From Escherichia coli (GTDB lineage: Bacteria > Pseudomonadota > Gammaproteobacteria > Enterobacterales > Enterobacteriaceae), in assembly GCF_003018255.1 (NCBI RefSeq), contig NZ_CP027440.1: 64,000 nucleotides of DNA, one strand, 5' to 3'. A program made the position numbers and the translations under genes. How positions within the stretch are numbered: the first letter of the stretch is position 1; each line of letters begins with the position of its first letter. The notes under the pieces were generated by a model. The model had not been told where the DNA came from, did no database searches, and worked only from the letters and a program-made list of their open reading frames with translations. Below, in pieces: positions 1,598-5,047 of the stretch.

Positions 1598-2950
1598 ATG
1601 TTGAAATCCCCCCTGTTCTGGAAAATGACCACCTTGTTTGGTGCAGTATTGCTGTTGTTGATTCCGATAATGCTGATTCGGCAGGTGATTGTCGAACGTG
1701 CCGATTACCGTAGCGATGTGGAAGATGTGATTCGCCAAAGTACCAGCGGGCCGCAAAAACTCGTTGGGCCGCTCATCGCTATTCCTGTGACCGAGCTTTA
1801 TACGGTGCAGGAAGACGATAAAACCGTGGAGCGGAAACGAAGTTTTATTCATTTTTGGTTACCTGAGTCATTGATGGTTGATGGCAATCAGAACGTGGAA
1901 GAACGCAAGATAGGCATCTATACCGGTCAGGTCTGGCACAGTGATTTAACGCTAAAAGCCGATTTCGATGTTTCGCGTCTTAGCGAACTCGACGCGCCAA
2001 ATATCACCTTAGGCAAGCCATTTATTGTGATTAGCGTCGGGGATGCGCGTGGTATTGGTGTGGTGAAAGCGCCTGAAGTTAACGGTACGGCGCTGACCAT
2101 TGAACCCGGCACCGGGTTAGAGCAAGGCGGGCAGGGCGTGCATATCCCTTTACCCGAAGGGGACTGGCGCAAGCAGAACCTGAAGCTGAATGTGGCGCTG
2201 AATTTAAGCGGTACCGGCGATCTTTCTGTGGTGCCTGGCGGGCGTAATAGCGAAATGACCTTAACCAGCAACTGGCCGCATCCCAGTTTTTTAGGTGATT
2301 TTCTACCAGCCAAACGGGAAGTTAGCGAGTCAGGTTTTCAGGCGCAATGGCAAAGTAGTTGGTTTGCTAATAATCTCGGTGAGCGTTTTGCTTCAGGCAA
2401 TGATACCGGCTGGGAAAACTTCCCCGCGTTTAGCGTCGCAGTGACGACGCCAGCCGATCAATACCAATTAACGGACCGGGCGACTAAGTACGCCATTCTG
2501 CTGATTGCGCTGACTTTTATGGCATTCTTTGTTTTTGAAACGCTCACCGCGCAACGTTTACACCCAATGCAATATTTGCTGGTGGGGCTGTCATTGGTGA
2601 TGTTTTATTTGCTCTTGCTGGCGCTTTCTGAACATACCGGTTTTACTGTGGCATGGATAATCGCCAGTCTGATTGGGGCGTTAATGAACGGTATTTATTT
2701 GCAGGCGGTATTGAAAGGCTGGCGTAATAGCATGTTGTTTACCCTCGCGCTGTTGTTGCTGGATGGTGTGATGTGGGGACTGCTCAACTCTGCCGATAGC
2801 GCGCTGTTGTTGGGAACCAGTGTGCTGGTGGTGGCGCTGGCCGGCATGATGTTTGTGACCCGTAATATCGACTGGTATGCGTTTTCACTGCCGAAAATGA
2901 AAGCCAGTAAAGAAGTTACAACGGACGATGAATTACGTATCTGGAAATAA
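1598..2950 (+). CDS. creD: Inner membrane protein CreD
   Basis: 450-aa ORF, multiple hydrophobic segments, matches CreD length and context. Confidence 0.95.
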   Translation: MLKSPLFWKMTTLFGAVLLLLIPIMLIRQVIVERADYRSDVEDVIRQSTSGPQKLVGPLIAIPVTELYTVQEDDKTVERKRSFIHFWLPESLMVDGNQNVEERKIGIYTGQVWHSDLTLKADFDVSRLSELDAPNITLGKPFIVISVGDARGIGVVKAPEVNGTALTIEPGTGLEQGGQGVHIPLPEGDWRKQNLKLNVALNLSGTGDLSVVPGGRNSEMTLTSNWPHPSFLGDFLPAKREVSESGFQAQWQSSWFANNLGERFASGNDTGWENFPAFSVAVTTPADQYQLTDRATKYAILLIALTFMAFFVFETLTAQRLHPMQYLLVGLSLVMFYLLLLALSEHTGFTVAWIIASLIGALMNGIYLQAVLKGWRNSMLFTLALLLLDGVMWGLLNSADSALLLGTSVLVVALAGMMFVTRNIDWYAFSLPKMKASKEVTTDDELRIWK

Positions 2951-3008: not shown

Positions 3009-3725
3009 TTAATCTTCCAGATCACCGCAGAAGCGATAACCTTCACCGTGAATGGTGGCGATGATTTCCGGCGTATCCGGCGTAGATTCGAAATGTTTAC
3101 GAATACGGCGGATCGTCACGTCTACAGTACGGTCGTGCGGTTTCAGCTCACGGCCGGTCATTTTCTTCAGCAGTTCAGCACGGGACTGAATTTTGCCTGG
3201 GTTTTCACAGAAGTGAAGCATGGCGCGGAACTCACTGCGCGGCAGCTTGTACTGCTCGCCATCAGGGCCGATCAAAGAACGGCTGTTGATGTCCAGTTCC
3301 CAACCATTGAACTTGTAGCTTTCAACGCTACGACGTTCTTCGCTGACAGTACCCAGATTCATGGTACGGGACAGCAGGTTGCGTGCACGAATAGTCAGTT
3401 CACGCGGGTTGAACGGTTTGGTGATGTAGTCATCTGCACCGATTTCGAGGCCGAGAATTTTATCGACTTCGTTGTCACGGCCAGTCAGGAACATCAACGC
3501 AACATTCGCCTGCTCGCGCAGTTCACGCGCTAACAGAAGACCGTTTTTACCCGGCAGATTGATATCCATGATCACCAGGTTGATGTCATATTCAGAGAGG
3601 ATCTGATGCATTTCCGCGCCATCTGTCGCTTCGAAAACATCATAGCCTTCCGCTTCGAAAATACTTTTCAACGTGTTGCGTGTTACCAACTCGTCTTCAA
3701 CGATAAGAATGTGCGGGGTCTGCAT
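3009..3725 (-). CDS. arcA: Response regulator ArcA (aerobic respiration control)
   Basis: 238-aa [33 protein letters not shown]...; receiver domain plus OmpR-type DNA-binding domain. Confidence 0.97.
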
Positions 3726-3820
3726 GTTTGCTACCTAAATTGCCAACTAAATCGAAACAGGAAGTACAAAAGTCCCTGACCTGCCTGATGCATGCTGCAA
3801 ATTAACATGATCGGCGTAAC

Positions 3821-3961
3821 ATGACTAAAGTACGTAATTGCGTTCTTGATGCACTTTCCATCAACGTCAACAACATCATTAGCTTGGTCGTGGGTACTTT
3901 CCCTCAGGACCCGACAGTGTCAAAAACGGCTGTCATCCTAACCATTTTAACAGCAACATAA
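3821..3961 (+). CDS. yjjY: Small protein YjjY (46 aa), uncharacterized
   Basis: ORF MTKVRNCVLDALSINVNNIISLVVGTFPQDPTVSKTAVILTILTAT read directly from sequence; too short for the supplied ORF track; lies in the arcA upstream region. Confidence 0.6.
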   Translation: MTKVRNCVLDALSINVNNIISLVVGTFPQDPTVSKTAVILTILTAT

Positions 3962-4310
3962 CAGGCTAAGAGGGGCCGGACACCCAATAAAACTACGCTT
4001 CGTTGACATATATCAAGTTCAATTGTAGCACGTTAACAGTTTGATGAAATCATCGTATCTAAATGCTAGCTTCCGTCACATTATTTTAATAATCCAACTA
4101 GTTGCATCATACAACTAATAAACGTGGTGAATCCAATTGTCGAGATTTATTTTTTATAAAATTATCCTAAGTAAACAGAAGGATATATAGCATTTTTTAA
4201 CAATTCAACCGTTAGTACAGTCAGGAAATAGTTTAGCCTTTTTTAAGCTAAGTAAAGGGCTTTTTCTGCGACTTACGTTAAGAGTTTGTAAATTTGCACC
4301 GCGTAATAAG

Positions 4311-4340
4311 TTGACAGTGATCACCCGGTTCGCGGTTATT
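4311..4340 (+). promoter_or_regulatory. Putative sigma70 promoter upstream of lasT
   Basis: TTGACA at 4311-4316 followed at ~18 bp by a weak -10-like element (GGTTAT/TATTTG), about 25 bp upstream of the lasT RBS. Confidence 0.3.
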
Positions 4341-4360
4341 TGATCAAGAAGAGTGGCAAT

Positions 4361-5047
4361 ATGCGTATAACGATTATTCTGGTCGCACCCGCCAGAGCAG
4401 AAAATATTGGGGCAGCGGCGCGGGCAATGAAAACGATGGGGTTTAGCGAGCTGCGGATTGTCGATAGTCAGGCACACCTGGAGCCAGCCACCCGCTGGGT
4501 CGCACATGGATCTGGTGATATTATTGATAATATTAAAGTTTTCCCGACACTGGCTGAATCGTTACACGATGTCGATTTCACTGTCGCCACCACTGCGCGC
4601 AGTCGGGCGAAATATCATTACTACGCCACGCCAGTAGAACTGGTGCCGCTGTTAGAGGAAAAATCTTCATGGATGAGCCATGCCGCGCTGGTGTTTGGTC
4701 GCGAAGATTCCGGGCTGACTAACGAAGAGTTAGCGTTGGCTGACGTTCTTACTGGTGTGCCGATGGTGGCGGATTATCCTTCGCTCAATCTGGGGCAGGC
4801 GGTGATGGTCTATTGCTATCAATTAGCAACATTAATACAACAACCGGCGAAAAGTGACACAACGGCAGACCAACATCAACTGCAAGCTTTACGCGAACGA
4901 GCCATGGCACTGCTGACGACTCTGGCAGTGGCAGATGACATAAAACTGGTCGACTGGTTACAACAACGCCTGGGGCTTTTAGAGCAACGAGACACGGCAA
5001 TGTTGCACCGTTTGCTGCATGATATTGAAAAAAATATCACCAAATAA
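4361..5047 (+). CDS. lasT: SpoU-family tRNA/rRNA methyltransferase LasT (YjtD)
   Basis: 228-aa ORF starting MRITIILVAPARAENIGAAARAMKTMGF...; conserved start chosen over the upstream in-frame ATG at 4340. Confidence 0.9.
   Translation: MRITIILVAPARAENIGAAARAMKTMGFSELRIVDSQAHLEPATRWVAHGSGDIIDNIKVFPTLAESLHDVDFTVATTARSRAKYHYYATPVELVPLLEEKSSWMSHAALVFGREDSGLTNEELALADVLTGVPMVADYPSLNLGQAVMVYCYQLATLIQQPAKSDTTADQHQLQALRERAMALLTTLAVADDIKLVDWLQQRLGLLEQRDTAMLHRLLHDIEKNITK

Follow-up and report, generated by a model that had tools for sequence, protein, structure and literature searches.

The yjjY-yjtD intergenic region of Escherichia coli was analysed within a stretch of 64 kb, hereafter the window, which spans the point where the E. 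coli chromosome map ends and begins anew. The region is bounded by the stop codon of yjjY (3961) and the ATG of yjtD, also known as lasT (4361), and the features found in and around it are listed in Table 1. The counterpart of this gap in K-12 MG1655 is colinear (4640543-4640941) and differs by five SNPs and no indels, all five SNPs being located in the fast-evolving right part. Window coordinates are converted to those of NC_000913.3 by the addition of 4,636,581. A 701-bp query across the gap has matches in 5423 of 5426 complete E. coli genomes with 95-100% identity, and it is uninterrupted in 5421 of them.

The initial annotation of this DNA described an AT-rich gap of about 400 bp with several A/T tracts between yjjY and lasT. 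This description is accurate, as the gap of 399 bp has a GC content of 35.6% compared with 52.2% for the window, and it contains four T tracts of five to six bases. The GC content is 41.6% in 3962-4050, 31.5% in 4051-4310 and 46% in 4311-4360, and 1.3% of the 399-bp windows in the 64 kb are equally AT-rich. Two TTGACA hexamers are found in the gap, at 4003-4008 and 4311-4316. Three ORFs of at least 20 amino acids touch the gap (25, 22, and 100 aa), and all three lack family matches and conservation across genera. The longest begins with an ATG, runs antisense to the start of yjtD and has 156 nt inside the gap. It was rejected as a gene, because the lack of a family match and of conservation makes it almost certainly spurious. 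The view that the gap holds no ORF of meaningful size is nearly correct, and it needs amendment for ytjE, a 17-codon ORF that falls below the usual cut-off and is annotated in K-12.

Table 1. Genes, conserved sequences and predicted elements in and around the yjjY-yjtD gap (window coordinates).
Feature	Position	Strand	Details
creD	1598-2950	+	
arcA	3009-3725	-	
yjjY	3821-3961	+	
yjjY-yjtD intergenic region	3962-4360		399 bp, 35.6% GC
yjtD/lasT	from 4361	+	followed by thrL and thrA
Ultra-conserved block	3726-4050	-	from arcA ATG; arcA leader, yjjY, FNR site, GTTAACAG
p19 dsRNA stretch	3766-4187		overlapping sense and antisense transcripts
FNR-activated arcA promoter	3935-3940; 3959-3964	-	-10 TAGGAT, 18-bp spacer, -35 CTGTTA; TSS 3927
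ArcA-type direct repeat TGTTATGTTGCTGTTA	3948-3963	-	two TGTTA 11 bp apart; overlaps -35
Repressor-type footprint, -64 to -56	3983-3991	-	attributed to CpxR by Reg-Seq (literature data)
FNR site TTGACATATATCAA	4003-4016		inverted repeat TTGAT-N4-ATCAA, 9 of 10 consensus positions
Predicted arcA upstream promoter	4022-4030; 4045-4050	-	extended -10 TGcTACAAT, 17-bp spacer, -35 ATTTCA; TSS ~4015; PWM 8.6; 10/10 genera
ORF, 25 aa	4041-4118	+	
ORF, 22 aa	4102-4170	+	
ORF, 100 aa	4205-4507	-	
Invariant island TGAAATC	4045-4051		
Invariant island TCACA	4076-4080		
Invariant island CAAnnnnTTGC	4095-4105		
Invariant island GAATCCAA	4129-4136		
Invariant island TTAACA	4197-4202		
Invariant island AATAGTTTAG	4227-4236		
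Invariant island GTAAATT	4288-4294		
Invariant island GCGnAAnAnG	4301-4310		
Invariant island GCGTAATA			
ytjE (b4824)	4137-4190	+	K-12 4640718-4640771; 17 codons, TTG start, TAG 4188-4190
T tracts of 5-6 bases	4150-4155; 4193-4198; 4239-4244; 4261-4265		
Predicted distal minus-strand promoter TTGAAT-17-TATCCT	4180-4208	-	TSS ~4173; PWM 8.8; 6/10 genera
Weak hairpin AGCCTTTT/AAAGGGCT, then TTTTCTG	4235-4268	+	hairpin 4235-4261; -7.6 kcal/mol, z = -1.5
Predicted -10 TAAATT in GTAAATT island	4289-4294	+	predicted TSS ~4301; 8/10 genera (PWM)
Candidate yjtD promoter	4311-4316; 4334-4339	+	TTGACA, 17 bp, GGTTAT; PWM 6.8; 4/10 genera
Invariant island AAGAG, yjtD Shine-Dalgarno	4349-4353	+	invariant

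The E. coli locus was compared with the loci of E. albertii, Salmonella, two Citrobacter species, Pseudocitrobacter, Scandinavium, an Enterobacter, Klebsiella aerogenes, and Raoultella. The more distant loci of Serratia, Tatumella, Yersinia, Photorhabdus, and Vibrio were added later. The matches listed by a search of contigs with ArcA were mostly distant response regulators, and the usable ones were from Citrobacter, Photorhabdus, Vibrio, Shewanella, and Haemophilus; other loci were found by exact-protein look-up of YjtD and ArcA relatives. Variation within E. coli was followed in a sample of seven strains, which comprised five strains from the divergent end of the identity ranking, K-12 and the window.

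A block of about 330 bp that begins at the arcA ATG (3726) and ends at about 4050 is nearly invariant. In the alignment of ten enterobacterial genera, about 90% of its columns are invariant, while the corresponding values for third codon positions are 33% in arcA and 7% in yjtD. The last 89 bp of the block (3962-4050) fall within the gap and its sole variable patch is at 3972-3980. The right-hand 310 bp of the gap (4051-4360) are divergent, with 0-48% invariant columns per 25 bp, and keep short islands. The SNP density in the seven E. coli strains follows the same boundary, with 0.8-1.1% in the block versus 7.1% in 4051-4360. These SNPs avoid the islands, with the exception of a C/G polymorphism at 4051, where TGAAATC ends. 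Positions 4095-4104 form a perfect 10-bp palindrome, CAACTAGTTG, which is kept as CAAnnnnTTGC in the ten genera, and a second CAACTA (4112-4117) is found 16 bp downstream of it.

The spacer between the arcA ATG and the yjtD ATG measures 632-636 bp in eleven genera (635 bp in Serratia) and 558 bp in Tatumella. Its length is steady from Escherichia to Serratia though about half of the sequence diverges, so the spacing or phasing of the conserved islands relative to one another may be constrained. A core that consists of a -10-like element, an FNR box and a TGTTA-N6-TGTTA repeat is recognisable as far as Serratia, Yersinia, Tatumella, Photorhabdus, and Vibrio. The gene yjtD is absent beside arcA in Yersinia mollaretii and Photorhabdus. 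In Yersinia, the region upstream of arcA extends for about 950 bp to thrL and retains the FNR, ArcA and TACAAT core.

The FNR site TTGACATATATCAA is the only match to TTGAYN4RTCAA in the 64 kb, where 0.40 matches are expected by chance. It is invariant in the ten genera and is kept in Serratia, Yersinia, Tatumella (TTGATATAAGTCAA), Photorhabdus (TTGATGTACGTCAA), and Vibrio (TTGATATAAATCAA). In the Reg-Seq study, positions -115 to +45 were mutagenised around a minus-strand arcA TSS at K-12 4640508, which is window position 3927 (Ireland et al., 2020). The Reg-Seq supplement cites Compan and Touati (1994) for this TSS. The smoothed anaerobic footprint has peaks at -90 to -86 and -80 to -76, and FNR was identified by mass spectrometry (Ireland et al., 2020). 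We mapped these peaks to 4013-4017 and 4003-4007, which are the two half-sites of the FNR palindrome. The RNA polymerase peaks (-37 to -34 and -14 to -11) land on the CTGTTA and TAGGAT of the FNR-activated arcA promoter, and our position weight matrix (PWM) scan also recovers this promoter; only its -35 extends into the gap. The TGTTA direct repeat TGTTATGTTGCTGTTA is a single match in 64 kb versus 0.11 expected. It is kept in Serratia, Yersinia, Photorhabdus, and Vibrio and not in Tatumella, and it is presumed to be a site of arcA autoregulation.

Activation of class I by FNR/CRP-type regulators takes place from sites at about -61.5, -71.5, and -82.5, and most natural FNR promoters belong to class II (-41.5). 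The centre of the arcA FNR site is 82.5 bp upstream of the TSS used in Reg-Seq, a distance that rests on one literature TSS, and -82.5 shares its helical face with -61.5 and -72.5. Two predicted -10 elements nearby, TATGTT and TAAAAT, would match spacings of -61.5 and -72.5. Compan and Touati reportedly described five arcA promoters spread over about 530 bp. The Reg-Seq supplement likewise calls its arcA promoter "one of many". The gap shares its locus, FNR palindrome, TSS and activator footprint with the known arcA multi-promoter region (EcoCyc/RegulonDB, Reg-Seq) and does not differ from it in kind; the differences are the SNPs relative to K-12 and the TGcTACAAT promoter, which is a prediction made here.

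Further promoters were predicted by a PWM scan that was combined with a conservation filter. Matches of this kind are common in AT-rich DNA and are to be read as predictions only; a simple consensus scan found no promoter in the gap. The predicted start of the TGcTACAAT promoter (about 4015) falls within the FNR palindrome. The sequence TGCTACAAT is invariant out to Photorhabdus, being intact in Serratia, Yersinia, and Photorhabdus, and reads TGCTACACT in Tatumella and a degenerate TGTTACATT in Vibrio. The predicted distal promoter overlaps the 3' end of ytjE and is located near the right edge (4187) of a dsRNA cluster that is described below.

These elements can be arranged into a switch. Published data show that under anaerobiosis FNR binds TTGACATATATCAA and, from about -82.5, activates the arcA promoter whose -35 CTGTTA overlaps the ArcA direct repeat. 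The TGcTACAAT promoter would start transcription inside the FNR site, and because of this predicted start, bound FNR may block it and at the same time switch on the downstream promoter at 3927. The remaining 310 bp of the gap may carry further weak leftward promoters of arcA along with a rightward promoter of yjtD.

The TTGACA near 4311 that was singled out in the initial annotation does exist, and the hexamer is polymorphic and not conserved. It is a perfect -35, and its best -10, GGTTAT, is weak (3/6) and was missed by the consensus scan. Positions 4316 and 4317 are polymorphic in the seven E. coli strains and 4321-4345, with zero invariant columns in the ten genera, is the least conserved stretch. 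The TTGACA-GGTTAT elements are present in 4/10 genera and polymorphic in E. coli, and so are not conserved. In terms of the PWM model they are a possible Escherichia-specific promoter of yjtD, whereas the best conserved predicted -10 candidate for this gene is the TAAATT at 4289-4294. The same TTGACA opens the sequence TTGACAGTGATCAC (4311-4324), which as a 14-mer is 79% identical to the FNR site. It was considered as a second FNR/CRP-like site and dropped, as its conservation is confined to Escherichia and Citrobacter koseri. The invariant AAGAG points to the ATG at 4361, and not the upstream TTG at 4340, as the start of yjtD.

Published p19 capture identified an RNase III-dependent dsRNA cluster, S-383, at 4,638,370-4,638,791 in an older K-12 numbering. 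Its position in the window was deduced, since the assignment of the cluster to arcA/yjjY fits the older K-12 numbering alone; the net offset to the window is -4,634,604. The dsRNA over 3766-4187 implies transcription of both strands in the left and central parts of the gap. The region is also a recurrent target of insertions. Adaptive IS insertions in the yjjY/yjtD gap recur in the mouse gut and raise anaerobic arcA expression, with s of about 0.09. Across laboratory and mouse-gut evolution, IS186 or IS5 repeatedly enter this same gap, and one IS186 insertion in a long-term evolution line is at K-12 4640557 (window 3976), at +15 after yjjY. Oriented Tn5 insertions in yjjY alter fitness via arcA expression. 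In the natural isolate E. coli IAL7255, an IS element (integrase-core ORF, 1074 nt) is found after window position ~4058, where it parts the distal gap from arcA. The proposal that the gap carries upstream control elements of arcA on the minus strand is borne out by the Reg-Seq footprints at the FNR site and the -35 and by the deep conservation, and it gains further from the insertions that alter arcA expression and fitness and from the transcription of both strands to about 4187.

Transcription of both strands also allows an antisense reading. According to it, plus-strand RNA that starts at the yjjY promoter and continues through ytjE regulates the long arcA leader transcripts, either by transcriptional interference or by RNase III cleavage in an excludon-like manner, and translation of ytjE merely stabilises or marks the RNA. 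The RNase III-dependent dsRNA, which is listed for the full yjjY CDS and was observed in two independent studies, is consistent with such regulation, as are the predicted convergent promoters on both strands and the fitness shift through arcA expression that is caused by oriented Tn5 insertions in yjjY. However, existing experiments do not separate antisense effects from simple disruption of promoters, and we regard the antisense reading as fairly unlikely. It does not compete with the explanation of the gap as an upstream control region of arcA; both may hold. The locus resembles excludon-like pairs in the long arcA leader that is transcribed against yjjY/ytjE and in the captured dsRNA; the likeness is one of arrangement and not of demonstrated regulation.

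A long non-coding gap in which both strands are transcribed might also encode a small RNA of its own or a structured cis-acting RNA, and the initial annotation had kept an unannotated small RNA in view. A covariance-model scan with Rfam 15 (E <= 10, both strands) gave nothing credible in 3962-4360 apart from one chance match to a human lncRNA model; elsewhere it found the thr leader, downstream of the gap. The fold of the 201-nt central region is no more stable than those of its shuffles (z = -0.6), and RNAalifold on 4040-4360 in the ten genera (320 nt) found no conserved structure, with consensus energies of -4.15 kcal/mol (plus strand) and -0.8 kcal/mol (minus strand). A structured RNA in 4040-4360 was rejected for either strand on the basis of folding and RNAalifold. 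There is no ncRNA annotation at the gap in K-12, and published Term-seq in three conditions has no 3' end in K-12 4640500-4640999. What could still favour a small RNA is the weak hairpin with its T-run at 4235-4268, which has three covarying pairs only. By eye, each genus seemed to show a hairpin ahead of TTTTC, but the folding z ranges from -3.6 to +0.5, so that the stability of the hairpin is not conserved across genera. A consensus scan found no intrinsic terminator in the gap, and a conserved terminator after ytjE was rejected owing to the weak and inconsistent stability of this hairpin and the lack of a Term-seq 3' end. An independent small RNA is already largely refuted by these results, and that the gap encodes one, or a structured cis-acting RNA, is extremely improbable.

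Plus-strand RNA that passes through the gap is translated in K-12 at ytjE. This ORF is annotated in NC_000913.3 and is absent from PGAP-annotated genomes, including the closest match of the window. PGAP omits ytjE in nearly all E. coli genomes, and gaps that look empty can therefore hide documented sORFs. It is the Figure 1 example of Stringer, Smith, Mangano and Wade, who detected it by Ribo-RET, Ribo-Api/Pmn and western blot of a SPA-tagged protein and found an nLuc fusion to be active (Stringer et al., 2021). The coordinates, TTG start and 17 codons are the same in the window, and the last residue differs: the peptide is MSRFIFYKIILSKQKDI here, with a terminal Ile in place of the Met of K-12, where it ends in DM. 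The suggestion of an unannotated small protein in the gap was therefore right as to the protein, which was validated by Ribo-RET/Ribo-Api and western blot, and wrong as to its being unannotated, since K-12 already carries it.

The ytjE ORF could be a genuine selected small-protein gene, with the central gap existing to express it. Its annotation in K-12, an SD-like GGTG 7 nt upstream of the TTG and an E. albertii ORF that is identical save for the same I/M terminal residue are what one would expect of such a gene. However, only E. coli and E. albertii have an intact ORF; in 8/8 non-Escherichia genera it is disrupted, either by lack of the start or by in-frame stops. Within E. coli, position 4139 is polymorphic and the start codon is TTG in 4/7 strains and TTA in 3/7; an in-frame TGA 9 nt upstream leaves the TTA strains with no alternative start. 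On these counts the ORF shows neither conservation nor a sign of purifying selection. Furthermore, the island GAATCCAA stops right at the start codon and conservation falls inside the ORF, and most novel sORFs of this kind are judged to be free of purifying selection (Stringer et al., 2021). A selected ytjE is, on this balance, quite improbable. Motifs VLLT and NSLV recur in other genera owing to the conservation of the islands GTTAACA and AATAGTTTAG, and an alternative conserved ORF in the frame of ytjE was rejected, as stops intervene in Salmonella and Citrobacter. We conclude that ytjE is translated in K-12 and not maintained by selection. The ORF is of recent origin, occurs only in Escherichia and is one that part of the species can do without. 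Most likely it is not a selected gene and arises as a by-product when AT-rich DNA is transcribed; given a protein that is detectable by western blot, it is possible that YtjE has a function in the strains that keep the ORF. The loss of the start codon in part of the species makes ytjE a clean case of an ORF that is translated yet unselected.

In all probability, the interval 3962-4360 serves as the control region upstream of arcA, overlaps in this role with the beginning of yjtD, and holds no new kind of element. The left quarter of the gap (3962-4050) is the distal end of the nearly invariant arcA promoter and leader block. The other 310 bp, which are AT-rich, fast-evolving outside the short islands and constant in length, would be shared with the promoter region of yjtD. 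The region, the FNR site and ytjE are already present in the literature and the K-12 annotation, so that the gap is known and ordinary and its significance as a discovery is little.

The block upstream of arcA is among the most conserved non-coding stretches in enterobacterial genera, and its conservation up to 4050 is greater than the mapped protein-binding sites can account for. A stable fold of the arcA leader was rejected as the cause, because the predicted 290-nt leader that begins at the TSS near 4015 has a fold z of -0.29; thermodynamic structure hence fails to explain the conservation. The combination of overlapping promoters, binding sites for FNR, ArcA and CpxR, the yjjY gene and antisense constraints may be enough, and a sequence-specific role of the leader RNA is possible. 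Because the block is both highly conserved and a recurrent target of adaptive IS elements, its unexplained conservation merits a specialist's look.

Term-seq data contain very abundant minus-strand 3' ends in the 5' UTR of arcA at K-12 4640397 and 4640415 (window 3816 and 3834). The former was seen in LB at OD 0.4 and scored as not Rho-dependent, and the latter was seen in LB at OD 2.0 with 231,175 reads and also in M63. These ends go undiscussed in the main text of the Term-seq paper, and they may represent leader-derived RNA. Both are located just past the hairpin TTGATGgaaagtgCATCAA. One could go further and propose that transcripts from the TGcTACAAT promoter yield a functional arcA-leader RNA, which acts either as a small RNA derived from the leader or as a leader that regulates in cis, with ends at 3816/3834, in which the sequence and not the fold is selected, and which FNR toggles and antisense yjjY/ytjE counteracts. 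We consider this unlikely.

Substitutions in yjjY among Enterobacteriaceae are few; they include the non-synonymous changes T to S and Q to L and almost no synonymous ones. The start codon is ACG instead of ATG in Serratia fonticola, the ORF is broken in Tatumella and Photorhabdus, and in Yersinia it is intact with differences at 14/46 residues. An NCBIfam model, NF052365, exists for YjjY. Judged from such comparisons, the constraint on yjjY looks to be at the nucleotide level, imposed by the arcA leader and promoters, and not at the protein level. Minus-strand ORFs of 25-27 aa that begin with ATG or TTG are present at 3802-3879 and 3904-3987, and they are fused as a 61-aa ORF in Citrobacter werkmanii. 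The RIBOSS preprint reports a translated Salmonella sORF upstream of arcA and opposite yjjY, in which arcA is labelled as arginine deiminase, apparently through a mix-up of names; this sORF would correspond to about 3802-3987 on the minus strand of the window.
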